Source of the DNA: an uncultured Pseudomonadota bacterium
Lineage (GTDB): Bacteria > Pseudomonadota > Alphaproteobacteria > RF32 > CAG-239
Direction: 5' to 3'
Length of the DNA stretch: 64,000 bases
Assembly: GCA_949295995.1 (NCBI GenBank)
Contig: CASFNK010000063.1
Location: 73 to 64,072, forward strand
The notes beneath the pieces are model-generated. The model worked only from the letters and a program-made list of their open reading frames with translations. It did not search any database and was not told the DNA's origin. Both the position numbers and the translations under genes were made by a program. Below, piece by piece: positions 29,369 to 63,096 of this stretch; the first letter of the stretch is position 1; every line of letters starts with the position of its first letter.

Positions 29369-29376
29369 GAGAATAA

Positions 29377-43987: not shown

Positions 43988-44465
43988 GCGTTTTTTGAAA
44001 ATAGGATTAGATTTTCATGGTGTGATTAATCGCCACCCCTCTTATTTTAAAGATTTTACGGAAATGGCCACTTCCAGAGGGCATAAAATATATATTATAA
44101 CCGGAGGACCTGCCGAAAAAATAGCCTGCTTTTTGAAAGGTTGGGGAATACGTTATAATGAGCTTTTTGCCATAATGGATTACTATGCGGCAAAAGGAGA
44201 AATTAAATTTTTTCCCGATGGAAGTTTCCACGTCGATGATAAGTTGTGGAACACGGCCAAGGCCAAATTTTGCAAAAAATACCAGATAGATATTCATATT
44301 GACGATTCGGATGTTTACGGACAAAGTTTTTCCACGCCTTACTGTCAGTATGATGAGAAGAGCGGTATCTGCATGATTGATAACAAATACAAGCTCAATT
44401 TGTCATTACCGCCAGAAGAGGCTGTTATTCAATTGGAAAGAATATTATCTAAACTTGAGAATTAG
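43965..44465 (+). CDS. Hypothetical HAD-like small protein
   Basis: 166 aa. GLDFHGVI resembles a degenerate HAD motif I, and a later DDS resembles motif IV. It overlaps the preceding gene by 23 nt. Confidence 0.4.
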   Translation: MEMIMTTERFLKIGLDFHGVINRHPSYFKDFTEMATSRGHKIYIITGGPAEKIACFLKGWGIRYNELFAIMDYYAAKGEIKFFPDGSFHVDDKLWNTAKAKFCKKYQIDIHIDDSDVYGQSFSTPYCQYDEKSGICMIDNKYKLNLSLPPEEAVIQLERILSKLEN

Positions 44466-45108
44466 CCTTCTTTTTAGCTTGATAAATGTCAAATTTTTCT
44501 TCTGCCCAAGTAACATCAGACTTAACCAATCGAGCGGGATTCCCTGCATAAATCGAGTGGCTTTCGGTCAAATCTTTAGTAACAATACTTCCCGCCGCAA
44601 CAATCACATCATCGGCAATTGTATTATTTTTGAGAACCATCACTCTTTCTCCAATCCACACATGATTACCGATAGAAATTTCTTTTCCTTGGTTAATGGC
44701 ATTCATTGTGTTGATATCAATAATACTGTGAAAATCTGACACATATAGTCTGGTATCTTTAGCCGCCATAAATTCATCTCCCAGAGTAAGGGAGCTTCCT
44801 TTTTCCCATAAGCCGCATTCTGTACCTCTGAAAATACAATTTTTTCCGATTTTGATTTGAGTATTATCGGTATCAATAATAATTTTTAGGGAGCCCCAAC
44901 ACCCTTCATCAATAGAAATGGAGTTATTGGAACCGTTAATAATGAGTTCTAATTTATAGAATTGGTTATTAGAATGAATATTCAGGACATTATTGTTGCC
45001 GATAATTTTTACGGGACTACGATCATAAAAACCATTGCCCTTTATTTTGGGCGATAGAATTTGATTGTTTACACCTTTAATTTTGATGAGTTTTTTAAAG
45101 AGTTTCAT
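44449..45108 (-). CDS. Left-handed beta-helix (hexapeptide-repeat) acyl/acetyltransferase, paralog 2
   Basis: IGNHVWIGERVMVLKNNTIADDVIVAAGSIVTKD hexapeptide repeats. It is a paralog of the upstream gene. Confidence 0.75.
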   Translation of the reverse strand: MKLFKKLIKIKGVNNQILSPKIKGNGFYDRSPVKIIGNNNVLNIHSNNQFYKLELIINGSNNSISIDEGCWGSLKIIIDTDNTQIKIGKNCIFRGTECGLWEKGSSLTLGDEFMAAKDTRLYVSDFHSIIDINTMNAINQGKEISIGNHVWIGERVMVLKNNTIADDVIVAAGSIVTKDLTESHSIYAGNPARLVKSDVTWAEEKFDIYQAKKKANSQV

Positions 45109-45763
45109 GTTTTGTATCTTTCCAGTTAATCAAGGCTTGGTCATAAGCCTCTTCCACCCAGTCAATATTTGTTTTCTTGCAGCTTGCAGGGTTTCCCGCA
45201 AACATAGCATGCTCAGTAGTCAAATCTTTGGTAACAATAGCCCCGATAGCAATAATAACATTATCGCATATATGACAGTTTTTCAAAATTTTGACGGCTT
45301 CTCCGAGCCACACATGATTTCCGATAATAATTTCTTTCCCTTGGTTAAGAGGCATTTTTGATAAGGGGTCAATCACCGCGTGAAAATCGGAGCAATAAAG
45401 CCTTGTTTCTTTGGCAAACATACAGCCTTCGCCAATAATAACCTGACTGTTATTTTCTTGCAAAACAATATCGGTTCCCATAAAGCCGGTTCTAAGCCCG
45501 ACTTTGACTAAAGTATTTGATGCTCTGATATCCAAATGCAGTTTTCCGTAACAACCCGCCGGCAAAATGACGACGTTGTTATTACCCGTAATATTAATGT
45601 CTGTAAATTTCAGATAGTTAGGACCTCCGATGTCAACTTTATTATTGTTGCCATCAATTTTAAGGGAACCGTATTTCAAAAGTTCGTTGCGGCAATCTTT
45701 GGGAGTAATAAAGGAGTTATTTTCGCCCTTGATAATGAATCTCTTTTTTCGAAAGAACCTCAT
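45095..45763 (-). CDS. Left-handed beta-helix (hexapeptide-repeat) acyl/acetyltransferase, paralog 1
   Basis: IGNHVWLGEAVKILKNCHICDNVIIAIGAIVTKD. It overlaps paralog 2 by 14 nt. Confidence 0.75.
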   Translation of the reverse strand: MRFFRKKRFIIKGENNSFITPKDCRNELLKYGSLKIDGNNNKVDIGGPNYLKFTDINITGNNNVVILPAGCYGKLHLDIRASNTLVKVGLRTGFMGTDIVLQENNSQVIIGEGCMFAKETRLYCSDFHAVIDPLSKMPLNQGKEIIIGNHVWLGEAVKILKNCHICDNVIIAIGAIVTKDLTTEHAMFAGNPASCKKTNIDWVEEAYDQALINWKDTKHETL

Positions 45764-46002
45764 AAGATTTTATCTCCCAAGCATTTACAAGCATAGTCGC
45801 GATAGAGCCGCAAATGATTCTGTAAGACATTGCAATGAGACAAATTTGTTCTCTGCTTTGCAATTTCCTTAGTGTACTTATAGCAAATTCTATCCAAGGA
45901 GGGCAAGCAAGAAATATCACTTTTGATAGGGAATATGTCAAATTTTAATTCTTTCGCCCAAAGAGCTTTAAGACTTAAATAAAAATAACCTTTATCAGTC
46001 AT
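45760..46002 (-). CDS. Hypothetical Cys-rich 80-aa protein
   Basis: Its start overlaps the repressor stop (TAATG) and its stop overlaps the next start (ATGA). No motif recognised. Confidence 0.4.
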   Translation of the reverse strand: MTDKGYFYLSLKALWAKELKFDIFPIKSDISCLPSLDRICYKYTKEIAKQRTNLSHCNVLQNHLRLYRDYACKCLGDKIL

Positions 46003-46622
46003 TATTGTTCAGCCCAAACGATTCGATTAATGAGTCTGATATCATTTATTTTGACCTGTGTTTCCTGGCTTGGATTTAATATATCGCCAAAAACGATTGT
46101 GGAAGTAGTACGGTGTTTAAATTCTTTAATTAAAGGATTTTTATTATGAAGCAACACAATGACGCGGTCCCCTTTTCTGACTTCGAGATCTTTAGTTGCC
46201 ACCAAAGTACTTCCTTTACGGTAAAGAGGTTCAAAATCGGCCGTGTCCAAATTAATTGCATAGAGGTTTACGCTACTGTCCGGAAATTGAACCTTATCCC
46301 ACTTTTCCGTAAGCAGTTTAGATGTTTTGATTGAGGCATGAGTAGATAAATCTGAATAAGTAACAAAAGGAATACCATTAGGTTTAGGAGTTAAATCTTC
46401 ATCAATGAGTTGATAGAATTGCTCAAAAGAAATATTGCAAGCCTCCAAAATTTTATTAATGCTGTCAAGGGAAGGCCAGCGTTTTTTTCCATCATGACGC
46501 ATACGTTTGCTTTTGTTGAAAGTTGTAGCATCCAGACCGGCTTTTTTAGCCAAGCCCGAAGGGGATAGACCATGTAATTTTGCCAACTTATCAACAGCAT
46601 CCCAAACTTGTTCGTATTCCAT
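46002..46622 (-). CDS. CI/LexA-like repressor: HTH plus an S24-peptidase-like C-terminal domain
   Basis: N-terminal HTH (LSPSGLAKKAGLDATTFNKSKR). The C-terminal beta domain aligns by eye to the LexA/CI cleavage domain (RKGDRVIVLL...LIKEF). Confidence 0.8.
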   Translation of the reverse strand: MEYEQVWDAVDKLAKLHGLSPSGLAKKAGLDATTFNKSKRMRHDGKKRWPSLDSINKILEACNISFEQFYQLIDEDLTPKPNGIPFVTYSDLSTHASIKTSKLLTEKWDKVQFPDSSVNLYAINLDTADFEPLYRKGSTLVATKDLEVRKGDRVIVLLHNKNPLIKEFKHRTTSTIVFGDILNPSQETQVKINDIRLINRIVWAEQ

Positions 46623-46741
46623 AATTCCTCCTTATTTTCTCAGGGTTAGAGATAATATGTGATAACTATACAACAAAAAATATTAGGAATCAATTCTTTT
46701 TTATGTTGAAATTCCTACAACCTAATATATAACAATAACAA

Positions 46742-46756
46742 TTAACGATTAGTTAA
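46742..46756. promoter_or_regulatory. CtrA-type box TTAA-N7-TTAA
   Basis: TTAACGATTAGTTAA(G), 30 nt upstream of the ATG at 46786. Confidence 0.4.
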
Positions 46757-46785
46757 GATAGAATAATGAAACTGGGGGTTACTAA

Positions 46786-47121
46786 ATGCGAGAGGATTAT
46801 GAGCCTTTTGAAAACGCTGAAGAGGTTTGGTTTTGGTTTTGCGGCTGTGTTATGGCAAGAGATGGCGGATTGCGTTCCTGCAATGATTTCAAAGGAAAAA
46901 TCAGAAATTGTGAAGTGGCGGATATTTATCGCATCATAAAGAAGATGAAGCTAAACCATCAAATCACCAATCGCCACCTTAGGGTAATGGTTAAATGGGG
47001 ACAGCTTGAGTGCTCGCCCTATTACCACTATCGCGCCAAAAGAAGCGAAATCAGACTCTGGGATGAAGGCTTGCACGCACTGGAAGGCTGGCTTTTGTCT
47101 AAGGGAATAATTAGCCTATGA
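46786..47121 (+). CDS. Hypothetical small protein, first gene of the phage-like cluster (regulator candidate)
   Basis: 111 aa. It is Trp/Cys-rich at the N-terminus and basic in the middle. It overlaps the next ORF by 4 nt. Confidence 0.5.
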   Translation: MREDYEPFENAEEVWFWFCGCVMARDGGLRSCNDFKGKIRNCEVADIYRIIKKMKLNHQITNRHLRVMVKWGQLECSPYYHYRAKRSEIRLWDEGLHALEGWLLSKGIISL

Positions 47122-47531
47122 GGTTGGATGTATTTGCCCCCAAGGATTGCGAGCAATGTTACGTTGTTTTTGCCGATAACACGACTTTATGGTGGTTAAG
47201 ACTCCTCAAGCCCGGATTCAGGCATTGCTATATTTTGTTAAAGCTCCGAGGAAGCGGGCTCTGGGTGGAGCTTAATCCTTTATCTAATCAAACATCTGTT
47301 TTTGTTTATGAATATCCTGCTACATTTGATTTTGCCGATTATGTTCGTCGGAGTCGGAAAGTTATTTTATGCCCGATAGAGATAGTCCAAGCCCCGCTAA
47401 AATGTGCGCCGTTATCTTTCTTTACCTGTGTTGAATTTGTAAAGCGTGTCATAGGGTTACACGATTGTTTCACCCATACACCATGGCAGCTTTATAAAAA
47501 AATATTAAAAATTGTAGGAAAAAGTTCTTGA
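47118..47531 (+). CDS. Hypothetical protein (137 aa), second gene of the cluster
   Basis: Translationally coupled (ATGA) to the preceding ORF. No motif recognised. Confidence 0.5.
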   Translation: MRLDVFAPKDCEQCYVVFADNTTLWWLRLLKPGFRHCYILLKLRGSGLWVELNPLSNQTSVFVYEYPATFDFADYVRRSRKVILCPIEIVQAPLKCAPLSFFTCVEFVKRVIGLHDCFTHTPWQLYKKILKIVGKSS

Positions 47532-47598
47532 CAAACGAAAAAAAATTTGCTACATACAAAATTGCCACTTGCTATTAGTGTGCCCAAAACAAAGTCAG

Positions 47599-47632
47599 AT
47601 TCGCAAGACGTTAAGTCTTAGCGAATTTTTTT
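47599..47632 (+). terminator. Strong intrinsic terminator between the two small ORFs and the packaging genes
   Basis: Stem ATTCGCAAGAC/GTCTT(A)GCGAAT (11 bp, one bulge), 5-nt loop, T6. It lies about 70 nt downstream of a TTGACA hexamer at 47528. Confidence 0.7.
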
Positions 47633-47666
47633 ATATCCCAAAACCTGTAAGAAGAAAGGAGTTAAA

Positions 47667-47984
47667 ATGCACTTCAAAAAGTCCAAGACATTGAAGTCCT
47701 TAAAGAAAAATTTGCAAAAGACTCTTCCCGAGAAGGTTTCACAGGTGTTAGAGAGTTATGAAACATTTTCGGAAAGACCGATTCCCGAAGATGCCAAAGG
47801 TTTTAGTGCACACCACAGCGCCTGTAAATCGGCAGTTACCCATGCTGAAACTTTGTTAAAGCTGGCCAAGTGGACGGAAGACGGAACATCAGAAAATACA
47901 ACTTCGTCGGGCACGGAAGATATTCTAAAATTGCTTGCGGAAGCGAGAGCTGAATTGGACGGTGCGGAAGATGAACCAGATTAG
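47667..47984 (+). CDS. Hypothetical protein in the small-terminase position
   Basis: 105 aa, RBS AAAGGAG, with a 3' end overlapping the terminase start. Assigned by position only. Confidence 0.35.
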   Translation: MHFKKSKTLKSLKKNLQKTLPEKVSQVLESYETFSERPIPEDAKGFSAHHSACKSAVTHAETLLKLAKWTEDGTSENTTSSGTEDILKLLAEARAELDGAEDEPD

Positions 47985-49458
47985 TTTTTACGAATTTATT
48001 TTTATCTGGTTCAAACTGCAAAATCTGAAAGTCCCTAAACACCAACGCAAAATAGCCAAGTGGCTGAGTATGATGTGGAAAAGCGAGCAAGACCGACAAG
48101 GATTACTGATGGCATTTCGCAACTCAGGCAAATCCACCATTGTCGGCCTTTTTTGTGCCTGGGTATTGTACACCAAACCCTCAACCAGAATTTTGGTAAT
48201 GGCGGCAGACCACGCTTTAGCCAAGAAAATGGTGCGCAATGTTAAACGCATCATTGAGCAACATCCGCTAACCCTATCGCTCAAGCCCGAAAAGTTGGAG
48301 CAGTGGGCGTCCGACCAATTTACCATTAGGCGGGATATGGAGTTACGCGACCCATCAATGTTGGCCAAAGGAATAGGTGCCAATATCACGGGTCTTCGTG
48401 CTGACTTGATTATTTGTGATGACGTCGAGGTTCCCAAAAATTGTGATACGCCGCTCAAACGGATTGAGCTAAGGGAAAAACTCGAGGAGTTGGACTATAT
48501 TCTAACACCTGAAGGCATGCAGTTATACATCGGAACACCGCATACGTTTTACACCATTTACCAGGTTGACTATGATAAATCACGTCCGGAGATTGAGCCA
48601 TTTTTGCTTAATTTCAAAAAATTGGAAATACCGATTTTGGACAAGAAAAATCAAAGCAGTTGGCCTGAGCGATTTTCGGTAGAAAAAATAGCCTCTTTAA
48701 GGCAACGCTCTGGAGAAAATAAGTTTCTATCGCAAATGATGTTGCAGCCGGTTAATTTCCGAGATTGCATACTCAATCCAGAAAGATTGTGTGTTTACAA
48801 TTTGGAGCTGACCCAAACTTATGCCAATGGTCGAGAGGTGTTGCACTTGGGCGATAAAAAATTGCTTTCGGCATCTTGCTGGTGGGATCCGTCTTTTGCC
48901 TCCTCCTCGGGAGATAACAGCGTCATAGCCTGTGTATTTACCGATGAGGAGGGAAAGTTTTGGCTCCATGATGTGGAATACATTAAACTGGTAGCTCAGT
49001 CGCAAGACAATCAAGCCTCGCTTCAGTGTGAAAAGGTTGCTGATTTTATTGAACGAAATCATCTGCCGTCCATTCGGGTTGAAGCAAACGGCATTGGCAA
49101 GTTTTTACCCGGTATCTTAAAGCAGACCCTGCAAAGGCGTAAGATTCGTACGGCGGTTTTAGAAATGTATTCGTCAACCAATAAAGCCGCCCGTATTTTG
49201 GAGGCGTTTGAAGTTTTGCTGGCCGACAGAGCACTGAATGCCCACCGCCGAATATGGAACACGCCGTTTATTGAAGAAATGCGGGAGTGGAACACGGAAG
49301 GCAGCGTTCATGATGATGGTTTAGACGCCGTCGCCGGTTGTTTGTCATCTGAGCCGATACGATTCACGCAAAATTATTCGGACGGAGGGGACTATAAACG
49401 CTTCTCTTGGCAAGGAAGCTCCGGTCAGTTTAAGGCACAAACCAATTTTAACATATAA
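47971..49458 (+). CDS. Terminase large subunit
   Basis: Walker A FRNSGKST, Walker B-like ILVMAAD and LIICDDVE, and nuclease-domain acidic motifs WWDPSFA and HDDGLDA. The track start 47935 is probably too early. Confidence 0.8.
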   Translation: MNQISFYEFIFIWFKLQNLKVPKHQRKIAKWLSMMWKSEQDRQGLLMAFRNSGKSTIVGLFCAWVLYTKPSTRILVMAADHALAKKMVRNVKRIIEQHPLTLSLKPEKLEQWASDQFTIRRDMELRDPSMLAKGIGANITGLRADLIICDDVEVPKNCDTPLKRIELREKLEELDYILTPEGMQLYIGTPHTFYTIYQVDYDKSRPEIEPFLLNFKKLEIPILDKKNQSSWPERFSVEKIASLRQRSGENKFLSQMMLQPVNFRDCILNPERLCVYNLELTQTYANGREVLHLGDKKLLSASCWWDPSFASSSGDNSVIACVFTDEEGKFWLHDVEYIKLVAQSQDNQASLQCEKVADFIERNHLPSIRVEANGIGKFLPGILKQTLQRRKIRTAVLEMYSSTNKAARILEAFEVLLADRALNAHRRIWNTPFIEEMREWNTEGSVHDDGLDAVAGCLSSEPIRFTQNYSDGGDYKRFSWQGSSGQFKAQTNFNI

Positions 49459-49463
49459 GGGAG

Positions 49464-49757
49464 TTGAAGATGTTTAATGAATTGATAAACTGGATAGCAA
49501 TGATTGAGTTGCCTCTTTTTGTAGCAGTTTTTCGGATGTTGGTCAAACAAAGAAAAGAAATGGAGGAACAACTCCTAGCCACTCAAAATCATACGGAGGG
49601 CAGGGTGGATATTTGTAAAGAATCATTAGCCGATTTCAAATTACATGTCGCCAGAAACTATGTTTCCACGGGCTATCTGAAAGATGTTGAAAATCGTTTA
49701 ACCAACCACTTGTTAAGGATTGAGAAAAAACTCGATGATGTCGGGAGGTCAAGATGA
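49464..49757 (+). CDS. N-terminal TM plus coiled-coil small protein (lysis accessory candidate)
   Basis: 97 aa with one hydrophobic helix (WIAMIELPLFVAVFRML) followed by a heptad-like region. It overlaps the lysin start by 4 nt. Confidence 0.45.
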   Translation: MKMFNELINWIAMIELPLFVAVFRMLVKQRKEMEEQLLATQNHTEGRVDICKESLADFKLHVARNYVSTGYLKDVENRLTNHLLRIEKKLDDVGRSR

Positions 49758-50170
49758 GTGAAGACTTAGACACATTAGCCCGTACGATTTACGGGGAGGC
49801 ACGAGGCGAGAGCATATCCGGAATGGAAGCTGTCGCCTCAGTTGTATTAAACCGTTTGGCTTTTAGCCGAAGGAAAGGACGTTATTGGTGGGGCAATACG
49901 ATAAAAGGAATATGTCGTTGTCCCTACCAATTTTCGTGTTGGAACAAGTCTGATTCCAACTATGCTCTGATACAAAGGGTTACAGATACGGATATTATCT
50001 TTTGTATTTGCAAACGCATTGCAGGCAGAGCAATTTCGGGACTTTTGGAAGATAACACGTCGCATGCCACGCATTATCACACCAAAAGCACCAATCCTTC
50101 TTGGGCAAGGGGAAAAATACCCTGCGCCGAGATAGGGCATCATCTCTTTTACAATGATGTAGAGACATAA
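49754..50170 (+). CDS. SleB-type cell-wall hydrolase (endolysin)
   Basis: LARTIYGEARGESISGMEAVASVVLNR...PYQFSCWN is the Hydrolase_2/SleB signature. Confidence 0.8.
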   Translation: MSEDLDTLARTIYGEARGESISGMEAVASVVLNRLAFSRRKGRYWWGNTIKGICRCPYQFSCWNKSDSNYALIQRVTDTDIIFCICKRIAGRAISGLLEDNTSHATHYHTKSTNPSWARGKIPCAEIGHHLFYNDVET

Positions 50171-50530
50171 ATGATTTTTAAAACAAAAGCACCGATGACG
50201 CTGATGAAAATCATGCGTCATTTTTTTTGTGGCAGCGCGCTTTTAAGACGAAAGAGGCATGGTTCGTCTTGGGAGCGCAATTGGCGTCCGCTTTTTGGGT
50301 ATTCGGTATGTCTGACATGGGTTCTGCAAATGAGCACGATATGTTGGGTTGTCTGGATAAATCACCCACGAGCGGAAAAAATTATTATGGCATTTGTTGA
50401 AACAACATCGCTTTGGAGTATGGCTTTGGGCGTTATGGGAATTTCAGTGGTTAAAAGTTCCAACTTCACCGAGAAAAAAACTCAAACCTCAAAGTCAGCT
50501 CCAAAGTCCAATCAAACCAATATCAAATGA
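50171..50530 (+). CDS. Holin-like membrane protein
   Basis: 119 aa with two to three hydrophobic helices. The W-x-R-N-W-R-P motif before TM1 is reminiscent of the alphaproteobacterial 3-TM holin family. It sits next to the lysin. Confidence 0.45.
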   Translation: MIFKTKAPMTLMKIMRHFFCGSALLRRKRHGSSWERNWRPLFGYSVCLTWVLQMSTICWVVWINHPRAEKIIMAFVETTSLWSMALGVMGISVVKSSNFTEKKTQTSKSAPKSNQTNIK

Positions 50531-50766
50531 AAGGAAAAACAATGGGAGGAGTATTTAATAAAATATTCAGCACACCAAAAATACAACAGCCGGTAATTCC
50601 GGTTGTTGATACTCAAGTAGAAGCCCAAAACAATACGGAACAAGAAAAACAAGAAAACATAGCACGTCAACGTCGAGGACAAGAAGGAACAATTCGCACT
50701 TCTTATAATGGTATTTTGGGAGAAAAGGAAGACAATCTCAAACGTAAAAATCTCTTGGGAGAATAA
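50527..50766 (+). CDS. Small phage-type protein (79 aa; possibly starts at 50542)
   Basis: QRRGQEGTIRTSYNGILG...KRKNLLGE resembles a small conserved protein I recall seeing upstream of podovirus portal genes. Confidence 0.45.
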   Translation: MKGKTMGGVFNKIFSTPKIQQPVIPVVDTQVEAQNNTEQEKQENIARQRRGQEGTIRTSYNGILGEKEDNLKRKNLLGE

Positions 50767-50768
50767 AG

Positions 50769-52295
50769 ATGGAGCTGCAACTTGAAAAATTGGTAAGCCG
50801 TTATAAAAAGGCTGCTGAAAGAAAACAAAATTGGGAGGAGCATTGGCGAGAATGCTATGAATATGCGTTCCCGCTAAGAGAAAATGTCAGCTCTTTTGGC
50901 TACGAAGCACCGCAAGGCTCCAAGAAAAATTTGTGTTTGTTTGATGGCACGGCACCTGATGCGGTGGATCAGTTAGCCTCATCGTTACTTTCAGAATTAA
51001 CACCTCCTTGGGCTAAATGGTTTGGATTAAGACCAGGTAATGAGCTTAGTCCCATTGAACAAGAACAAGTTGCGCCGATTTTGGATAAATCCTCAGAAAT
51101 TATGCTGCAAAATTTTGAACATTCCAATTTTGCGGTAGAGGTTCACCAATGTTATTTAGATTTGGTAACAGTCGGTACGGCTTGCTTAATGTTTGAGGAG
51201 GCAGCGATTGGAGAGGCGACGGCGTTTCATTTTTATGCGGTTCCTTTGAGAGAAATTGCCATTGAAGAAAGTTCGGATGGCAAGATTGATACCACGTTTC
51301 GTTGTTCAAAACTCAATTTGGAAGGCATACGCACCCGTTTTCCCGAGGCCGAAATTCCGCCTTTCTTGCAGGAGCGATTGGAGCAAGACAGAGAGTATCA
51401 GCTCAGTGTTATAGAGGCGGTGATGCCGAGAAATTACAATGCCGGTGCTTGTGGGTATGATTATATTGCATTTGCTTGGGATGAAAACAGTGGTTATGAA
51501 GATAGTTGTATCTTAAAAGAAGGTATATTTGAAACATCACCGTTTATTAACTTTAGGTGGTTAAAAGCTCCGGGAGAAATTTATGGTCGTTCACCAGTCA
51601 TGAAAGCTCTGCCGGATATTAAAACTGCGAATAAGGTAGTGGAGTTGATTTTGAAAAATGCCTCCATTTCTGTAACTGGTATTTGGCAAGCAGATGACGA
51701 TGGCATATTAAATCCGGACAACATCAAACTCGTTCCGGGGGCAATTATCCCCAAAGCGGTAGGCTCCAAAGGTTTAACGCCGTTGAGTGCCCCCGGTAAT
51801 TTTGATGTTTCGCAACTCATACTTTCTGATTTGCGGCAAAGAATAAATCATTCATTACTGGCTGACAGATTAGCCCAAATTGCCACTCCGAATATGACCG
51901 CCACGGAAGTTTTGGAACGCTCTGCAGAAGTTGCACGCATTTTAGGAGCGACTTTTGGGCGTCTGCAATCGGAATTACTGACGCCGCTTTTAAAACGAGC
52001 CTTCCAAATTTTACGTCGTCGTGGGGATATTCCGAATTTTGACTTAGATGGGAAGATTGTTGATTTGCAGTATAAATCGCCTCTGGCTTTGGCGCAAACC
52101 CGCAAGGATATTACCAATGTCAGCGAGTGGGTGTCAATGCTTGCCACCTTTGGGACAGATGCCTTAGCGGCGGTCAATGTGGAAGAAGCCTCCAGATGGT
52201 TGGGCAAAACCCTTTGCGTCCCATCGCAGTTGATAAGGGAAACACCGCTCACCTCTGAGCCTGAAGTAGCGGAGCCAGAGAATGCAGCCGTATGA
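50769..52295 (+). CDS. Portal (head-to-tail connector) protein candidate
   Basis: 508 aa. Assigned from position after the terminase and lysis genes and from size and acidic C-terminus, which are consistent with T7/BPP-1-type connectors. No HMM was run. Confidence 0.6.
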   Translation: MELQLEKLVSRYKKAAERKQNWEEHWRECYEYAFPLRENVSSFGYEAPQGSKKNLCLFDGTAPDAVDQLASSLLSELTPPWAKWFGLRPGNELSPIEQEQVAPILDKSSEIMLQNFEHSNFAVEVHQCYLDLVTVGTACLMFEEAAIGEATAFHFYAVPLREIAIEESSDGKIDTTFRCSKLNLEGIRTRFPEAEIPPFLQERLEQDREYQLSVIEAVMPRNYNAGACGYDYIAFAWDENSGYEDSCILKEGIFETSPFINFRWLKAPGEIYGRSPVMKALPDIKTANKVVELILKNASISVTGIWQADDDGILNPDNIKLVPGAIIPKAVGSKGLTPLSAPGNFDVSQLILSDLRQRINHSLLADRLAQIATPNMTATEVLERSAEVARILGATFGRLQSELLTPLLKRAFQILRRRGDIPNFDLDGKIVDLQYKSPLALAQTRKDITNVSEWVSMLATFGTDALAAVNVEEASRWLGKTLCVPSQLIRETPLTSEPEVAEPENAAV

Positions 52296-52503
52296 TACCC
52301 GACAAATGTCGGAAGCACAGATTCGTGAAGCATTTATAAAATGCTTTTCGAGCAGGGAAGGGAGAATAGTCCTCTCTTACCTAAAACGTCTGACACAGGA
52401 GCGATGTTTGGGACCGGAAAGTTCTTCGGATGCGTTACGTCATCTGGAAGGACAAAGACATCTGGTTTCAATAATTCAAAACAAGATATCAGACGAAAAT
52501 TAA
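52282..52503 (+). CDS. Small conserved-position phage protein (73 aa)
   Basis: It overlaps the portal 3' end by 14 nt. The position matches small post-portal proteins of BPP-1-like podoviruses, as I recall them. Confidence 0.4.
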   Translation: MQPYDTRQMSEAQIREAFIKCFSSREGRIVLSYLKRLTQERCLGPESSSDALRHLEGQRHLVSIIQNKISDEN

Positions 52504-52521
52504 CCAAAGAAAGGAAAAGAC

Positions 52522-53244
52522 ATGAAAGAAAGACCAGTTGAAAACCTCAACGAAATGAATCTTGCAGCCCAGCAGAGTTCAGGTCCTTCAGCCTCGGCAC
52601 AAGGGAAACCGGCGAATTTGCCGCCCAAATTCTGGGATGAAGCCACTCAAAGTGTAAAACTGCAAGAATTGATAGATGACTATAACTCTATGGCCATGAG
52701 AGATGAAAATCTGATAGAAACGCACAACCGCAATATGCCGGAAAGCTATGATAAATATCAGATAAAAATCCCAAACGAATTGTTGGATCATGATGAAGAA
52801 TTGTTCAAACAGTTTTATGAACATGGCTTTACCAATGACCAAGCACAATTTGTCTATGACCTGGCCAATGAACGAGTCATACCGGTTTTAGACCAGTTGA
52901 CCGTAAACTTTGAGGCTCAAAAACAACTTGCCAAGCTGACCAATTATTTTGGTGGACGAGAGAGATTTGATGAAGTATCGCGTCAAATTTCGGCTTGGGC
53001 AAAACAAAATTTGAGCGGGGACGTCTATGACGCTTTAGGCTCGACGGCTGAAGGCGTAATAGCCTTGTATAAGATGATGTCGTCTAACGAACCGATGCTT
53101 AGCAAAGATAAGGGCTATGAAGGGGAGTTAAATGAACAAACCTTACGCAAGATGATGGAAGATCCGCGTTACTGGCGAGACAAAGACAGTGCTTATATCA
53201 ATAAGATTACGCGCGGATTTGAAAAACTCTACCCTGAAAAATAA
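52522..53244 (+). CDS. Scaffolding protein candidate
   Basis: 240 aa, acidic and helical, located between the portal and capsid genes. Confidence 0.45.
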   Translation: MKERPVENLNEMNLAAQQSSGPSASAQGKPANLPPKFWDEATQSVKLQELIDDYNSMAMRDENLIETHNRNMPESYDKYQIKIPNELLDHDEELFKQFYEHGFTNDQAQFVYDLANERVIPVLDQLTVNFEAQKQLAKLTNYFGGRERFDEVSRQISAWAKQNLSGDVYDALGSTAEGVIALYKMMSSNEPMLSKDKGYEGELNEQTLRKMMEDPRYWRDKDSAYINKITRGFEKLYPEK

Positions 53245-53264
53245 ACCTTTTCAGGGTTTTTTTT
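53231..53264 (+). terminator. Hairpin terminator overlapping the end of the scaffold-like gene
   Basis: Stem ACCCTGAAAA/TTTTCAGGGT followed by T8. Confidence 0.65.
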
Positions 53265-53294
53265 ATATAGGTTAATCACAAATAGGAGGAAAAT

Positions 53295-54134
53295 ATGTCA
53301 ACACAAATAACCGAATCCTTTATCAAACAATTTGAAGCCGATGTTCACTTGGCTTACCAACAAAACGGCTCAAAATTGAGAAATGCGGTTCGTACCAAAA
53401 ACAATGTCAAAGGCTCATCCACCGTCTTCCAAAAAGTCGGCAAAGGCATTGCTTCACAAAAAGCGCGCCATGGCTTGGTACCGGTAATGTCTTTGGATCA
53501 CACCCCGATTGAGTGTGAACTCCAAGACTACTACGCCGGCGATTGGGTAGATGCTTTGGATGAATTAAAGGTCAGCATTGATGAACGTCGCGTTATTGCC
53601 AATTCGGGAGCTTATGCTTTGGGACGCAAAACCGACGAATTGATTATTGATGCCTTGAGCAAAGCCCCCGAAGACAACGATGTCGGCGATTATAGTTTGG
53701 CCATGAGCAAAAAAGATATTTTGGATGCTTTTGCCAAATTGAACTCTAACGATGTTCCTGATGACGGACAACGTTTTGGTTTGGTAGGACCTTACCAATG
53801 GAATGCTTTGCTCAACATTGCCGAGTTCTCAAATTCTGATTATGCCGGCGATAATCTGCCATTTTTAAAAGGAACCGAGAGCCGTAAATGGTTAGGGATT
53901 AACTGGATTATGCATACTGGTTTGCCTTTAAGTGGCACAGAGCGTCAGTGCTTTATCTTCCACAAAACGGCAGTCGGACACGCTTGCGGACAAGATGTTC
54001 AAAGCGACATCACCTGGCATGGCGACCATGCAGCTCACTTCGTCAATAATATGATGAGCCAAGGAGCTTGCTTGATTGATCCGACCGGAGTTGTTCGGAT
54101 TAAGTGCAAAGAAGAATCTTCAATCAGCGAATAA
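53295..54134 (+). CDS. Major capsid protein candidate
   Basis: 279 aa with a strong RBS (AGGAGG), bracketed by terminators. Position and size fit. The N-terminal block resembles capsid proteins I recall from BPP-1-like podoviruses. Confidence 0.55.
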   Translation: MSTQITESFIKQFEADVHLAYQQNGSKLRNAVRTKNNVKGSSTVFQKVGKGIASQKARHGLVPVMSLDHTPIECELQDYYAGDWVDALDELKVSIDERRVIANSGAYALGRKTDELIIDALSKAPEDNDVGDYSLAMSKKDILDAFAKLNSNDVPDDGQRFGLVGPYQWNALLNIAEFSNSDYAGDNLPFLKGTESRKWLGINWIMHTGLPLSGTERQCFIFHKTAVGHACGQDVQSDITWHGDHAAHFVNNMMSQGACLIDPTGVVRIKCKEESSISE

Positions 54135-54145
54135 GGAGAAAGAAC

Positions 54146-54415
54146 ATGTCGTTTATGTCAAAAGATTTTAGTGTTATAGCCTATGCCAATGGTTTTACGC
54201 TTTGGAACTACACCACGAAAGATACATTGGATACCGTAAAAGGAGCAAATTACTTTAATGATATTGCACCTTTTGCACGTATAGGCGATATGATTTTGAC
54301 CGTAGCTAATAATCAAAGTACGATTGCACCGGCAATTTTGGCAGTAACAGCAATTGCAGACGGTGTTGTTTCCGTATCAGATTTTACGAGTAGCGCAGGC
54401 TCAGCCGCGGCATAA
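54146..54415 (+). CDS. Small head-associated protein candidate (89 aa)
   Basis: The ATG at 54146 has RBS AGGAG (track ORF 54104..54415). LWNYTTKDTLDTVKGANYFND...IGDMI resembles a small ORF commonly found after capsid genes in alphaproteobacterial phage and GTA clusters, as I recall them. Confidence 0.45.
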   Translation: MSFMSKDFSVIAYANGFTLWNYTTKDTLDTVKGANYFNDIAPFARIGDMILTVANNQSTIAPAILAVTAIADGVVSVSDFTSSAGSAAA

Positions 54416-54443
54416 AATCATAAACACATTAATAGCAAAGGCA

Positions 54444-54481
54444 GGAGAAACCTTTTAACGAAAAAGGTTTCTCCTTTTTTA
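54444..54481 (+). terminator. Strong intrinsic terminator after the capsid-region genes
   Basis: 13-bp stem AGGAGAAACCTTT/AAAGGTTTCTCCT followed by T6. Confidence 0.75.
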
Positions 54482-54496
54482 TCAACGGAGAAAATC

Positions 54497-55066
54497 ATGA
54501 GTTATACCAACATAGGAATCTGTTCCAATGCATTACTAAAAATTGGTGCGGAAGGCATCACCTCGTTTGAAGACGGCACGGCGGAAGCAGAGATAGCCTA
54601 CAGCTTGTATCCTCTGATACGCGATAGCTTGCTGTCCTCATATCCATGGAGTTTTGCCAAAGCGCAAAAAACTTTACCGAGATTAAATGATATTCCTGTT
54701 GCCGATTATCAGTATGCCTATTTATTGCCAAATGATTTTTTAAGAGTAATTTCAGCCGGCAATGGGCGTAGAGGACGCGGCATAGAATATCGTATTTATG
54801 AAAACCGACTTCATACCAATTCTGAAAATGTCAGCCTGAGTTATATCTTTCGCCCGCAAGAAAGCACTTTTCCGGCATTTTTTTGCGAAGCCTTGACAGC
54901 GAAATTGGCAGCAGAATTTTGCCTTCCGTTAACAGAAAGCACGACAAGGGCAGAGCTTTTGGAAAAATTAGCGGAAGAAACCATCAATAAAGCACGTTTG
55001 GTAGATGCGCAACAAGGCACACCGAGAACCTTAGAAGATTTTTCACTAATGGAGGCAAGATTATGA
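54497..55066 (+). CDS. Head-tail adaptor / tail tubular protein A-like candidate
   Basis: 189 aa. The N-terminal CSNALLKIGAEGITSFEDGTAEAE...YPWSFA pattern resembles podoviral adaptor proteins I recall. It overlaps the next gene by 4 nt. Confidence 0.45.
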   Translation: MSYTNIGICSNALLKIGAEGITSFEDGTAEAEIAYSLYPLIRDSLLSSYPWSFAKAQKTLPRLNDIPVADYQYAYLLPNDFLRVISAGNGRRGRGIEYRIYENRLHTNSENVSLSYIFRPQESTFPAFFCEALTAKLAAEFCLPLTESTTRAELLEKLAEETINKARLVDAQQGTPRTLEDFSLMEARL

Positions 55067-56964
55067 GTAACTTAGGTTCGGTAAAAACGAATTTTACGGC
55101 AGGACAAGTCTCTATGGATTTGCTTGGTCGCGGGGATTTACGAGTTTATGCCAATGGAGCGAGACATCTGGAAAATGTTATTATCCACCCCACCGGAGGA
55201 GTATCTCGCCGAAGAGGACTGAAGTTCATCAGTAAGGTTGAAAAGCCAACACGATTACTTCCCTTTGAATTTAATACTGAACAAATATATTTGCTGTGTT
55301 TGACGGATAATAAACTACAAGTTCTAAAAGATGATAATGTCATAGCCGAACTTGAAACTCCTTGGGTTGGAGAACAATTATGGCAGTTAAACTATACACA
55401 AAGTGCAGATACGTTTTTGATAGTTCACCCCGATGTTCCGCCCAAACAAATTACACGAAACAACAATGAGGTTTGGCAAATAGAGGATTGGGAATATTAT
55501 AGCAAGGATAATATGATATATATGCCTTATTATAATTTTTACCAAAAAAAGCCGAAGTTAAAATCAAGTGCTATTAGTGGAAACGTAACCTTAACGGCAG
55601 ATGCAGACGTATGGTTGCCCACACATGTAGGATCTTATATTTCATACCAAAAAGGGCTAGCACAAATTACAGAAATTACCGATACAAAAGTAGCAAAGGC
55701 AAAAGTAGTTAAAAATTTTAGTACATATGCTGCGACTAATGATTGGTCGGAATCTGCGTTTTCGGAAGCCAGAGGTTGGCCAGTATCGGTAACCTTTCAT
55801 CAAAATCGAATGGTTATCGGAGGATCCAGAGATTTACCCAATAGATTATGGCTATCACAATCATCAGATTTATTTAATTTTGATTTGGGTGAAGCTTTGG
55901 ATGACGAGGCAATTGAATTTGGCATTTTATCTGATCAGGTAAATGCAATAAAGGCGGTAGTCTCATCAAGACACTTATTAGTATTTACGACCGGAGCAGA
56001 ATGGATGGTAACGGGCGAGCCGTTGACACCGGAGAAGATACAGCTTAAACGTCAAACCAATGTTGGTATTTATTCGGATAAAATTTTGGCACCTCAACAA
56101 ATTGATGGAGCCACGGTATTTGTTTCCAGAAGCGGCAAACAATTACGAGAATTTCTCTATACAGATGTTGAGCAAGCCTATCAAGCCAAGGATTTAACGA
56201 TTCTGTCCAACGATATTATTCAATCTCCGCAAGATATAGGTTTTGACCAAGACGAGTGTGTCTTATACATAGTTTTGGAAGATGGTAGTATTTCATGTTT
56301 AACGACTTATCGTACCGAAGAAGTAACCGCTTGGAGTAAACTGACGACAGCAGGAAAATTTTTATCCGTAGCGGTAATCGGAAATGACATCTATTTTTGT
56401 GTTCAACGTTCCAACGGGTATTTTTTAGAAAAGTTAGCAGATGATTATTATTCAGACTGCGCCATACGTTTAACATCGGAGATTGCACAAAGGGACTGGG
56501 GTGGACTTGACAATCTGGAAGGAGAAAAGGTTGTTGTGTTGGCTAATGGTTTTAGTTTAGGGGAATTTCAAGTTGAAGAGGGAGAGATCCATCTTTTAGA
56601 TGAAGCCACCGAAATTATGGTTGGAATACCTTATGAACACTGGATAGAACCGCTGCCTTATATGGTAGAAAGCGAGCGACCATATTCTCCAAAGGCATTG
56701 AGGGTAATACATGCTCGGTTTCGTATTATCAACAGTAAATCATTATGTATTGATATTGGCGGTGGATATTTTCAATATCCGCTAAAAAGAATACATAAGG
56801 ACCAAATTTTTGATGCGCCGCCGATGACCTATTCCGGAGACGTACAAGTAAGATCACTGGGTTGGATAAGAGACATGAATAAACCAATGTGGAGCATAAG
56901 AAGCAATGAGCCGTTGGCTTTTACGCTTTTATCCGCAGTAGTAGAAATAAAACTTAAAGAATAA
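55063..56964 (+). CDS. Tail tubular protein B / nozzle-like candidate
   Basis: 633 aa. FTAGQVSMDLLGRGDLRVYANGARHLENVIIHPTGGVSRRRG resembles the N-terminus of podoviral nozzle proteins I recall. Confidence 0.45.
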   Translation: MSNLGSVKTNFTAGQVSMDLLGRGDLRVYANGARHLENVIIHPTGGVSRRRGLKFISKVEKPTRLLPFEFNTEQIYLLCLTDNKLQVLKDDNVIAELETPWVGEQLWQLNYTQSADTFLIVHPDVPPKQITRNNNEVWQIEDWEYYSKDNMIYMPYYNFYQKKPKLKSSAISGNVTLTADADVWLPTHVGSYISYQKGLAQITEITDTKVAKAKVVKNFSTYAATNDWSESAFSEARGWPVSVTFHQNRMVIGGSRDLPNRLWLSQSSDLFNFDLGEALDDEAIEFGILSDQVNAIKAVVSSRHLLVFTTGAEWMVTGEPLTPEKIQLKRQTNVGIYSDKILAPQQIDGATVFVSRSGKQLREFLYTDVEQAYQAKDLTILSNDIIQSPQDIGFDQDECVLYIVLEDGSISCLTTYRTEEVTAWSKLTTAGKFLSVAVIGNDIYFCVQRSNGYFLEKLADDYYSDCAIRLTSEIAQRDWGGLDNLEGEKVVVLANGFSLGEFQVEEGEIHLLDEATEIMVGIPYEHWIEPLPYMVESERPYSPKALRVIHARFRIINSKSLCIDIGGGYFQYPLKRIHKDQIFDAPPMTYSGDVQVRSLGWIRDMNKPMWSIRSNEPLAFTLLSAVVEIKLKE

Positions 56965-56975
56965 AAGGAGGAACC

Positions 56976-57374
56976 ATGGGAGAATTAATGACTGCTCAAA
57001 ATGCAAGCAAGAGTACAAATATTATTCAAGAGGCGTATAATGTGGTAGAGGATAATAAAAATCTTCGAGATAATTATGAGTTGTCTCAAAATAAACTTTC
57101 GCATGATCAGTTGGCCAATCGCGAGAAGAAAAAAAATATATTAGAAGAAAACTTGGCAAAACGCAGAGCCAGAGTTGCCGCAATGGGAATGAGCGGAGAC
57201 GGTTCAGCATTGGCCGAGCAACAAAGAGAGGCTTATGAAGGATATAAGGATATAGCTGAAGATGACTATAATTATTACCACCAATATAAGACAAACAGAG
57301 TAAATACCAAATATAAAATTCGCAGTAATGCGGTCAATGGTATTTTTAACGCAACACAAAGTTTGTTAAAATAA
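56976..57374 (+). CDS. Hypothetical coiled-coil protein, last gene of the cluster
   Basis: 132 aa with RBS AAGGAGG, followed by a terminator. Confidence 0.5.
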   Translation: MGELMTAQNASKSTNIIQEAYNVVEDNKNLRDNYELSQNKLSHDQLANREKKKNILEENLAKRRARVAAMGMSGDGSALAEQQREAYEGYKDIAEDDYNYYHQYKTNRVNTKYKIRSNAVNGIFNATQSLLK

Positions 57375-57379
57375 GCGAA

Positions 57380-57418
57380 AACTCCGCCGGTTTAAACGGC
57401 GGAGTTAGCTATTTTTTT
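57380..57418 (+). terminator. Terminator closing the phage-like cluster
   Basis: Stem AACTCCGCCG/CGGCGGAGTT, then a T7 run 5 nt downstream. Confidence 0.7.
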
Positions 57419-57485
57419 ACACACAATTAAGAGAATTTTAAAAAAATAGGGGTAACTTCAAAAAAAATCAAAAAAAAGGCTTATA

Positions 57486-61707: not shown

Positions 61708-61784
61708 GGGGGTGTAGCTCAGTTGGTTAGAGCGCCTGCCTGTCACGCAGGAGGTCGCGAGTTCGAGCCTCGTCACTCCCGCCA
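61708..61784 (+). tRNA. tRNA-Asp (anticodon GTC)
   Basis: GGGGGTGTAGCTCAGTTGGTTAGAGCGCCTGCCTGTCACGCAGGAGGTCGCGAGTTCGAGCCTCGTCACTCCCGCCA. Cloverleaf with a 7-bp acceptor stem, anticodon loop CTGTCAC, and CCA encoded. Confidence 0.93.
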
Positions 61785-61787
61785 CTA

Positions 61788-61811
61788 AAAAGCCGTCGCA
61801 AGACGGCTTTT
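61788..61811 (+). terminator. Terminator after tRNA-Asp
   Basis: Stem AAAGCCGTC-GCAA-GACGGCTTT followed by T-rich sequence. Confidence 0.75.
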
Positions 61812-61856
61812 AGTTTTTTTGGGAAAAGAGGCGAGAAGGAGCGACCTCTTAAAACG

Positions 61857-61888
61857 AAAAAGGCGGAGAAATTTCTCCGCCTTTTTCT
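61857..61888. terminator. Bidirectional terminator after ORF 61890..62501
   Basis: A5, GGCGGAGAA/TTCTCCGCC, T5. Confidence 0.75.
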
Positions 61889-61889
61889 T

Positions 61890-62501
61890 TTAGAGTTCGT
61901 GAACCGCCTGATTAATTGGTTCAATCTTTCTCGATTTATTTTCAAAAGTTTGAAGAATATCAACTTCTCCCCAATAAAACCAATTCCCGACCTTAAGTGA
62001 AATTTCATCACCCTTTTGCGCGCCGAGAAGAGCCGGCATGAAATTGTGGCTGATATAAAAACAAACATACTCACCATTAGCCTGCGAGAGAATACAATAA
62101 TATACCCGCTGAGGGTACAAAGAACGCTCTTCCGGAAAAGCCAGAAAGAATATTTCCTCAAAGCAAACTTCCGCCTCGAAATAACTGCATTTATTATGCT
62201 GCATTTCTTGACGTCCGACATCTACCCATTGATGCGTAAGATTTTTGCATTCAATAACGCCCATCACTTGAGATTTTTCAAAAACGACCTCTAACTTGAG
62301 TGCAAGAATATCATTTTCTTTAGCCAAAGCAAATTGAGCAATATCATCAAAGCTCACCGCACAGCGGAAAAACTTATCATCTTGGGTTGCAATATCGCAA
62401 GCAAAAGGGTAGGAGGAATTTCCGACATGTTCAATCACAATTTTGCGAACACAAAGTTTCACTTCATATTCGTTACCTGACTTACAATAAGAAGTTTCCA
62501 T
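61890..62501 (-). CDS. Hypothetical Cys-rich protein (203 aa)
   Basis: Intact ORF with a terminator. No family recognised and no obvious RBS. Confidence 0.5.
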   Translation of the reverse strand: METSYCKSGNEYEVKLCVRKIVIEHVGNSSYPFACDIATQDDKFFRCAVSFDDIAQFALAKENDILALKLEVVFEKSQVMGVIECKNLTHQWVDVGRQEMQHNKCSYFEAEVCFEEIFFLAFPEERSLYPQRVYYCILSQANGEYVCFYISHNFMPALLGAQKGDEISLKVGNWFYWGEVDILQTFENKSRKIEPINQAVHEL

Positions 62502-62587
62502 AAATTAAAAAAATTTAAGTCCGACAATAATTTAATAAATATAGATTATTGCCTGTAAGCTATTGCAAAAAACACCGAACGTCAAGT

Positions 62588-62989
62588 CTATTCAAAAAAA
62601 GAGCTTTTGACCTCATTGATTGTGGGCCAAATATCTCCTTCTTTAGCACACTTAACGCCTAAGAAAATTTTTGTTTTGGCGGTAATACGGAATAAGTTTT
62701 TCAAATCCTGAAAATATTTGCGAACATAAAAATAATTTTCGGGCTTGAGTTCCCAAGATTCATTTTCTTTGATATCGTCTGATTGATAAACCACTAGTTT
62801 GTTATCTAAAAAATAACCACGCGGATAATTTTGCAAAACATGCGTGATTTGCTCTTTATCCAAACCCAGATTAGTTAAAATATCTCTGTGAGAAAAAGGT
62901 TGTCCGCTTTCGCCTAAGATAAGTCCCACCTCAGGGATAATGATAAAAGCACGGCGTTTCTCGTGATAAGCCTTAACGGATGGATTCAT
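62588..62989 (-). CDS. Hypothetical protein (about 133 aa)
   Basis: The ATG at 62989 is preceded by AGGAGAG (track start 63007). No family recognised. Confidence 0.55.
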   Translation of the reverse strand: MNPSVKAYHEKRRAFIIIPEVGLILGESGQPFSHRDILTNLGLDKEQITHVLQNYPRGYFLDNKLVVYQSDDIKENESWELKPENYFYVRKYFQDLKNLFRITAKTKIFLGVKCAKEGDIWPTINEVKSSFFE

Positions 62990-63096
62990 TTTTCTCTCCT
63001 TTAACATTCAAAATACAAGCCTCATTATAGCTAGAAGGTATTTAAACATTATTAACTTTCCCTATATAAAATAAGACCAACAGAAAGGAGAGGAAA

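Follow-up and report, generated by a model that had tools for sequence, protein, structure and literature searches.

A cluster of 16 genes in the chromosome of an uncultured alphaproteobacterium encodes shell, packaging and lysis proteins of the T7-like podovirus kind and is a candidate gene transfer agent (GTA). The cluster occupies positions 46786-57374 of a stretch of 64,000 nucleotides (contig CASFNK010000063.1; GTDB lineage RF32; CAG-239), which is called the window throughout and has a G+C content of ~39%. Judging from its gene set and conservation, the cluster is very probably a functional particle module that belongs to the host. The locus is probably a chromosomally fixed, vertically inherited remnant of a T7-like virion module under host control, and the sequence tips the balance somewhat toward its acting as a GTA. 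A preliminary description, made from the DNA sequence and its open reading frames (ORFs), had put forward a domesticated particle locus resembling a GTA, and had named a recently truncated prophage as the other possibility. Its observations turned out to be correct in nearly every detail when compared with the ORF map and with profile searches.

Gene content of the cluster

Gene identities were obtained from profile searches against Pfam, PHROGs and NCBIfam. The 16 ORFs are intact and co-oriented on the forward strand, and they abut or overlap one another, which is the count and layout given in the preliminary description. ORFs without a family name are referred to by their order in the cluster, g01 to g16.

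Every structural protein with a family match falls in T7/podovirus families (Pfam, PHROGs). The portal (50769-52295) is of the T7 head-to-tail connector type (PF12236, E 2e-137), and its sequence matches in PDB are the portals of Legionella phage LME-1 (9efk, 4e-32) and Cobetia phage Carin-1 (8ck0, 1e-27). It is followed by a Bbp19-like small phage protein (52282-52503; PF25181, 3e-13), a scaffold of the T7 capsid assembly protein family (52522-53244; PF05396, 5e-19) and the major capsid protein (53295-54134; PF19821, 1e-75). The capsid has 4718 homologues at 60-99% identity, a ratio of nonsynonymous to synonymous substitution rates (dN/dS) of 0.01, and the LME-1 capsid as its closest solved structure (9eg4, 1e-32). 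Next come an adaptor of the T7 gp11 or tail tubular A type (54497-55066; phrog_394 tail protein, 5e-51, with a weak match to the Pfam Tube family) and a nozzle of the T7 gp12 type (55063-56964; phrog_376, 2e-146; PF25675, 4e-10). PDB sequences matching the nozzle are the Carin-1 tail nozzle (8ck1, 6e-53) and LME-1 9efk_M (3e-30). The portal, capsid, adaptor and nozzle had been tentative calls for which hidden Markov model searches were advised, and those searches upheld all four.

The large terminase TerL (47935-49458) is of the T7 type, as a hit to the NCBIfam equivalog termin_lrg_T7 (5e-122) and to Terminase_6C confirmed; gene callers place its start at 47971, which gives 495 aa. It is ~29% identical to the TerL of T7-like phages and has a dN/dS of 0.04. 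Thus the host chromosome encodes phage-type capsid, portal and terminase genes, as expected of a GTA, and the portal, scaffold, adaptor, nozzle and TerL are all of the type that defines the T7-like podovirus structure. The 105-aa g03 (47667-47984) lies directly 5' of TerL and overlaps the TerL gene in all architectures examined. It belongs to a family with no annotated function (phrog_31793, 2e-41), and its position points to the small terminase, TerS.

Lysis genes stand immediately behind TerL. A SleB-type cell-wall hydrolase, the presumptive endolysin (49754-50170; Pfam Hydrolase_2, 2e-20), is 45% identical to its homologue in Pelagibacter phage Hodr. The 97-aa g05 (49464-49757; phrog_29007, 2e-32, a family with no annotated function) has an N-terminal hydrophobic stretch, whose transmembrane character was judged by eye, and a predicted coiled coil. 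It pairs with the SleB lysin beside TerL in all branches of the family and is a candidate lysis accessory or holin-type protein. The holin-like membrane protein g07 (50171-50530) gave weak matches only (GTA_holin_3TM, 6e-4, below cut-off; phrog_3427 holin, 3e-4) and has the highest dN/dS of the cluster (0.17-0.41).

No named function was obtained from Pfam, PHROGs or NCBIfam for g01, g02, g03, g05, g08, g13 and g16 (111, 137, 105, 97, 79, 89 and 132 aa, respectively). The first of these, g01 (46786-47121), is a four-helix protein that matched no family in the three databases, is kept across the whole family including Azospirillum (dN/dS 0.02-0.04) and is a candidate regulator. The next, g02 (47118-47531), is a phage-derived alpha/beta protein with invariant R-H-C ... 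C-V-E motifs and 268 homologues, and it too is kept across the whole family. AlphaFold2 models of g01 and g02 (predicted local distance difference test scores of 84 and 85) had no fold match in PDB (best E 0.1 and 1.5). In BFVD the g02 model matched solely uncharacterised phage proteins (E 2e-7, TM 0.76). The small g08 (50527-50766; phrog_831, 6e-6, no annotated function) keeps its position 5' of the portal.

The remaining two are g13 and g16. The g13 gene (54146-54415; phrog_18004, 9e-19, no annotated function) is found in 82 loci and occupies the head-decoration position. In LME-1 the gene right after the capsid gene encodes a decoration protein (PMC12407071), followed by the adaptor, the nozzle and, after three intervening genes, the fibre. 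Since this gene order places the decoration gene behind the capsid gene, the position of g13 suggests that it is a decoration protein. The g16 gene (56976-57374), 3' of the nozzle, is found in 76 loci, encodes a predicted coiled coil with no family match and is possibly a small virion protein.

Position, co-divergence and selection

The cluster is set among housekeeping genes on both sides, as Pfam annotation bore out for the flanks described earlier. Upstream are aspartyl-tRNA synthetase, ClpB, RNase E, AmiC, PBP1A, release factor RF-2 (prfB) and a YhdP/AsmA-like gene. Downstream are an esterase, the solute-binding protein SBP_bac_3, MlaC and an M23 peptidase.

The identical capsid protein was found only in gut metagenome assemblies, namely on six independent contigs of the same species. 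All cluster genes that were not cut by contig ends were present on these contigs at 97-100% identity. The locus is thus not confined to one strain, whereas confinement would have spoken against domestication, and it also has relatives in other species. In at least 14 species-level genomes the whole cluster, together with a divergent regulator, lies in the same order between yhdP-hyp166 and esterase-SBP-mlaC. Position and co-divergence were compared in those 14 species-level genomes whose contigs extend far enough into the flanks, where the proteins share 46-91% identity with their counterparts in the window. The mean identity of six core particle proteins tracks the mean flank identity (Pearson r=0.98, n=14), and the particle proteins are more conserved than the flanks in every one of the 14 genomes.

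Selection was estimated against three relatives with measurable dS (0.2-2), using genes with finite dS. Cluster genes had dN/dS values of 0.01-0.2, with the holin-like gene reaching 0.41, and flanking genes were similar. The set needed to package and retain DNA (TerL, portal, adaptor, nozzle) had values of 0.02-0.04. Of 80 genome loci, 64-79 carry the main genes at full length. Vertical inheritance and purifying selection, both expected of a GTA, are therefore indicated by the synteny, the co-divergence and the dN/dS values. Conserved position in relatives and a dN/dS well below 1 had been named as checks on the domestication proposal; the position was found in at least 14 species, every gene had the low ratio, and with the co-divergence and the intact cluster in six assemblies these results support the proposal.

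A recently truncated prophage on its way to decay would have the same gene content, and insertions in the portal gene of two Azospirillum brasilense strains fit such an element. It is nevertheless very improbable here and is contradicted by the syntenic site, the co-divergence and the selection: 16 genes have stayed intact with dN/dS of 0.01-0.2 (one up to 0.41) at dS up to ~2, the same locus is found in species whose flanking proteins are ~50% identical, and relatives occur in at least 586 species. The annotated contexts of two loci of the window's clade had no integrase.

Two blocks, lysin-holin (49754-50530) and Bbp19-scaffold-capsid-g13 (52282-54415), have a dS to the closest relatives of 0.16-0.48, which is 2-5 times below that of the flanks (~1.0-1.5). 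The difference points either to strong codon bias or to recent recombination across species boundaries.

Functions absent from the window

No integrase, recombinase or replication gene was found by Pfam annotation of ~11-61 kb plus 20 further ORFs, a scan that did not take in all of the other short ORFs. A GTA likewise has no integration, excision or replication module, and the absence of integrase and replication genes reported in the preliminary description held for the annotated and scanned genes of the 64 kb. Att-like direct repeats flanking the cluster were searched for, and solely short imperfect chance repeats were present. The only tRNA genes of the window, at 11.1 kb and 61.7 kb, do not adjoin the cluster, and so the reported lack of a tRNA att site also stands.

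Functions needed for infection are missing as well. Neither the cluster nor the 64-kb window had internal-core (gp14-16-like ejection) genes. A tblastn search of the 64 kb with five fibre or tailspike variants plus other post-nozzle proteins, all taken from relatives, found nothing (best E 0.07). Both absences had been noted before and were confirmed for the window. The accompanying remark that everything needed for packaging and lysis seemed present was too generous, since the clade has no fibre gene locally. The window thus lacks the replication and transcription genes, internal core and gp17-like fibre of a T7-like virus. The annotated window also had no run-off replication (ROR)-like genes and no neighbouring secretion-system genes.

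Related clusters in other bacteria

A capsid-profile scan of one genome per species showed that a relative is encoded in at least 586 species representatives. The nearest carriers are uncultured gut Alphaproteobacteria close to Candidatus Scatocola. More distant carriers include Candidatus Enterousia and many metagenome-assembled genomes (MAGs) from rumen, caecum and termite gut. Exact-sequence look-up identified cultured carriers among the Rhodospirillales: many Azospirillum species, on chromosomes of ~3 Mb, Rhodovibrio and Caenispirillum. Full-text literature searches found no prior description of this particle family.

The family has three architectures: that of locus L092 and the Azospirillum type, that of the window's clade and the Enterousia type. 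L092 and the Azospirillum type have kept a T7-like order, with regulator, g01, g02, portal, Bbp19-like gene, scaffold, capsid, g13, adaptor and nozzle, then a small protein, a fibre or tailspike, the TerS-position gene, TerL, g05 and lysin. Scaffold and capsid genes are separated in Azospirillum by a GGDEF-EAL gene of the host and a PRC-barrel gene (L173, 6700-9580). The window's clade has no fibre gene, and its TerS/TerL/lysis block has been relocated to a place before the portal.

The Enterousia-type clade (at least 50 species) carries lipB within the cluster, before the lysin (L078, 7259-7939), and a TerL that is split at the equivalent of residue 221/222 of the window's TerL (L027-L086; for example L078, 14235-19013). 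An ATPase gene of ~200-240 aa and a nuclease gene of ~280-350 aa lie ~3.3 kb apart. Between them, on the opposite strand, are dnaB, a gene with a double helix-turn-helix (HTH) and one uncharacterised gene. Both TerL halves are under purifying selection (dN/dS 0.04-0.16), and the particle proteins vary in step with DnaB in a comparison of 44 species (r 0.55-0.77).

In all branches except the window's there is a protein whose N-terminal domain is of the T7 gp17 type and whose distal part varies. Azospirillum has a pectate-lyase tailspike there, one Rhodospirillaceae MAG a collar-type fibre, and Enterousia short forms. Hodr has post-nozzle genes of 159, 783, 1247 and 349 aa, recorded as hypothetical, which are absent from the window's cluster; size and position suggest that they are internal-core and fibre genes, with the 783- and 1247-aa pair as the probable internal-core proteins. 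The examined branches had no post-nozzle genes as large as the 783/1247-aa pair, the largest being an uncharacterised gene of 669 aa (L091).

Four distant relatives with annotated contexts had housekeeping genes on their flanks, and no integrase was present. Nearly all IMG/VR contigs that carry this capsid are fragments of 4-19 kb. Among 142 representative non-cluster ORFs from 80 such contigs, no integrase or phage replication family was among the 25 of 55 families listed, which comprised host genes and fibre domains. A 5-kb human faecal record designated 'Bacteriophage sp.' (MT838907.1, locus L088) contains a related cluster from portal to adaptor with 80% capsid identity. Either particles package cluster DNA, or the virome preparation contained host DNA.

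The flagging of such regions as viral by the IMG/VR pipelines, and the local lack of fibre and internal-core genes, would fit an element that is mobilised like a capsid-forming satellite, with a co-resident phage supplying the fibre, the ejection proteins and perhaps replication. The probability of such helper dependence appears small. The window, as annotated and scanned, has none of the integrase, att sites or replication initiator that mark satellites related to capsid-forming phage-inducible chromosomal islands (cf-PICI); the position is fixed, with host-like divergence over deep time; and sister clades are interleaved with essential host genes. The closest helper-type phage of this lineage in the phage collection has only ~43% capsid identity.

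We see about an even chance that the clusters form an ancient GTA family derived from a T7-like podovirus, found in gut Alphaproteobacteria of the Scatocola and Enterousia types and in free-living Rhodospirillales (Azospirillum), host-owned, interleaved with essential genes and with a split terminase that works in one clade.

Regulatory region

A CI/LexA-like regulator is encoded divergently from the cluster (46002-46622, reverse strand), with a Cro/C1 HTH (HTH_26, 8e-5) and a degenerate S24-like domain (Peptidase_S24, 1e-4). This gene adjoins the cluster in every architecture that retains g01 and g02. Orthologues differ at the positions that correspond to LexA Ser119 and Lys156, as in a pseudo-peptidase. 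An SOS-cleavable repressor was considered and rejected because the positions of this catalytic dyad vary. An 80-aa ORF with no family match lies downstream in the same operon (45760-46002, reverse strand), and its position is kept in 16 relatives at 33-53% identity.

The 163-nt intergenic region holds a core that is near-invariant in species with ~50% diverged proteins. Within it, TAGGAAT-N20-ATTCCTA (46684-46717) is a candidate palindromic operator that overlaps the -35 element. The palindrome is unique in the window (0.05 expected by chance) and nearly invariant in at least 14 species, and TAGGAA...TTCC is retained in high-GC Azospirillum-type loci. A sigma-70-like promoter candidate, read from the sequence and kept in relatives, consists of TTGAAA, a 16-nt spacer and TATAAC (46706-46733, forward strand), and it would drive the cluster.

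A second box, TTAA-N7-TTAA (46742-46756), just 3' of the -10 element, is a candidate site for a host global regulator. It is kept in 14/14 aligned species as well as L022, L024, L025 and L093, with a variable spacer. The equivalent position has GTTC-N7-GTTC in L092, L094, L150 and L158, and GAAC-N4-GTTC in Azospirillum-type loci. A single match to TTAA-N7-TTAA is not enriched in the window, and only its conservation across species carries weight. TTAA-N7-TTAA is the CtrA box, and GTTC-N7-GTTC is similar to the SOS box of Alphaproteobacteria. The Rhodobacter-type GTA (RcGTA) is under the control of both CtrA and LexA. The box of the window is thus a candidate site for a CtrA-type regulator or a variant SOS box. 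Since a conserved palindrome and promoter stand beside a second box resembling host-regulator sites, we propose dual control, in which the element's own non-cleavable repressor would act together with a host global regulator.

A gene region elsewhere in the window (28378-30342) has a weak match to a ChpT-like histidine phosphotransferase (PF10090, 3e-4, below cut-off), after which come a single-domain response regulator and CheR. The region may be part of a CckA-ChpT-CtrA-type relay, which would be relevant if TTAA-N7-TTAA is a CtrA site.

The cluster is closed by a strong intrinsic terminator on the forward strand (57380-57418), at the site given in the preliminary description. Its 10-bp stem, rich in G+C, lies at 57380-57406 and precedes a T-run. 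Two terminator-like hairpins with T-runs lie inside the cluster on the same strand, one between the scaffold and capsid genes (53231-53257) and one with a 14-bp stem after the capsid-g13 pair (54443-54475).

Comparison with known GTAs and phages

The nearest viruses are T7-like podophages such as Hodr and LME-1. These two and Carin-1 share with the cluster significant sequence similarity, including 43% identity between the capsids of the window and Hodr, and the order portal, Bbp19-like protein, scaffold, capsid, small protein, adaptor and nozzle. They differ in being complete viruses with replication genes, large internal-core proteins and tail fibres. LME-1 and Sulfitobacter phage pCB2047-C also integrate. 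What is left in the cluster is the virion shell together with packaging and lysis functions, at an unchanging place in the host chromosome.

RcGTA (Rhodogtaviriformidae; Rhodobacter, Caulobacter) resembles the locus in its organisation. Both are chromosomal sets of head, packaging and lysis genes without integrase or replication genes, inherited vertically in Alphaproteobacteria under purifying selection and with candidate host-regulator sites. Both lack DNA-translocation machinery of their own, which suggests reliance on uptake by the recipient. The virus lineages are different. RcGTA derives from an HK97-type siphovirus, with a prohead protease, a tape measure and a long tail, whereas the module described here is of the unrelated T7 podovirus type. 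The RcGTA head is small and oblate with T=3, and the nearest solved capsid to that of the present locus, which is known from its genes, is T=7.

Like the GTA of Bartonella (BaGTA; Bartogtaviriformidae), the locus is an alphaproteobacterial, host-associated and operon-like cluster of capsid, terminase and lysis genes that co-diverges with its host. Some Bartonella reportedly produce particles that have a short tail or none (PMC9662315). The BaGTA genes differ in size (portal 620 aa, TerL 447 aa, capsid 372 aa), and BaGTA is limited to Bartonella, whereas the present family occurs in at least 586 species. Phage pCB2047-C, which has a TerL nested in the BaGTA clade, served as a proxy and had no similarity to the cluster (E>1). 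Membership in BaGTA was rejected by this proxy together with the gene sizes and the T7-equivalog TerL. A Bartonella origin, which the G+C content of 39% had brought to mind, was rejected on the identity of the host as well.

It is accordingly extremely unlikely that the locus belongs to either known alphaproteobacterial family. The host class and the sub-threshold GTA_holin_3TM match are what connect it to them, the latter being the sole link to RcGTA. The T7-type portal, scaffold, adaptor, nozzle and TerL are not the HK97/siphovirus set, and BaGTA is distant by gene size and proxy. The 10-kb GTA-like particles of Azospirillum were attributed to RcGTA-like genes (PMC3899980), and no link to the present family could be made.

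FpGTA of Faecalibacterium was reported in 2026 as the first GTA of the podovirus-like kind and as the first one known from the human gut (PMC12946183). It likewise has a gut host and a ~10.5-kb operon with TerS, TerL, portal, scaffold and capsid of the short-tailed-phage type (PMC12946183). The operon is conserved across the genus, with fibre and lysis genes in a separate locus, whereas lysis genes are inside the cluster here. FpGTA also differs in its Firmicute host, its experimentally observed particles and its ~9-kb packaged DNA; the present locus is a gene set, and the resemblance is architectural only. FpGTA weakens the preliminary statement that a GTA derived from a podovirus would be a novelty. 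On its gene content the locus is an independently domesticated, T7-derived candidate GTA, a variant within the existing category of podovirus-like GTAs.

Proposed mechanism

From these genes and sites we infer a course of regulation, non-specific packaging, transfer and uptake. The promoter between the CI-like gene and g01 would be held off through the palindromic operator, probably bound by the CI-like protein, which would not be cleaved, while the second conserved box would serve a host global regulator. In some cells the promoter would fire, and the operon would be read through the internal hairpins after the scaffold and capsid genes. Procapsids would be built from portal, scaffold and capsid protein and filled with cellular DNA by the T7-type TerL with g03 as its small partner. 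The adaptor and nozzle would then close the portal. Finally, lysis of the producer cell by the SleB-type hydrolase, acting together with membrane proteins g05 and g07, would release the particles. Because internal-core ejection machinery is lacking, delivered DNA would get no further than the periplasm of a related cell, whose own functions for uptake and recombination would be needed, as in RcGTA.

Several points weigh against a GTA role. The window's clade lacks locally the gp17-type fibre or tailspike that is present in every other branch, which leaves adsorption unexplained unless a fibre gene lies elsewhere in the genome. Insertion sequences or transposases interrupt or truncate the portal in two A. 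brasilense strains (L173, L174); the element is thus dispensable in culture-collection lineages and can be lost. The nearest solved virion, LME-1, has a T=7 head (PMC12407071), so that the heads could hold far more than 10.6 kb. If the head is T=7, a headful would be an estimated ~30-40 kb, more than the 10.6-kb cluster and unlike classical GTAs. Particle production, DNA packaging and transfer are all predicted from genes alone.

The evidence for host ownership would fit any role that benefits the host equally well. The module might serve programmed altruistic lysis with DNA release, act as an anti-phage decoy or defence by packaging or degrading DNA when a phage infects, or form a killing particle. 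The local absence of fibre and ejection proteins suits a role that needs no delivery, and lysis genes are tightly linked to TerL in every architecture. A role without transfer is nonetheless fairly unlikely, as the strong constraint on TerL, portal, adaptor and nozzle (0.02-0.04) is hard to explain without sealed, DNA-filled heads and other branches have retained receptor-binding fibres or tailspikes.

Other features of the window

Tandem genes for hexapeptide-repeat acetyltransferases (44449-45763, reverse strand), whose copies are ~73% identical over 130 nt, form a variable insertion between hyp166 and the regulator operon. The insertion occurs only in the window's species, with one copy in L008 and two in L009.

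A stretch of low GC content (30-33%) at 6000-11000 adjoins tRNA-Glu and is free of phage genes. It encodes a methyltransferase, a short-chain dehydrogenase, several ORFs with no family match and a peptidoglycan-binding-domain protein with a sub-threshold Tlde1-domain match (E 3.5e-6), and it may be an island. Exact-sequence look-up of 4642-5631 gave no record. At the other end of the window (61708-64000) lie tRNA-Asp and, after it, four or five small ORFs that matched nothing in Pfam; two of these ORFs are kept in close relatives (clusters c61 and c62).

Significance

Gene sets are known for few GTA lineages, every one of which has altered the understanding of gene exchange in bacteria. The locus passes every sequence-level test of domestication and comes from a virus lineage that differs from that of RcGTA and, by proxy, BaGTA. 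The family is found in hundreds of animal-gut species that are not yet culturable, and it is also present in tractable Azospirillum, which would allow direct tests. Its members are natural experiments in the survival of a virion module, with lost ejection proteins, a lost or relocated fibre, a two-gene terminase and a phage repressor switch replaced by apparent host-regulator sites. If active, the family would be a third independent GTA lineage in the Alphaproteobacteria and possibly the most widespread system of particle-mediated gene exchange among those of the gut.

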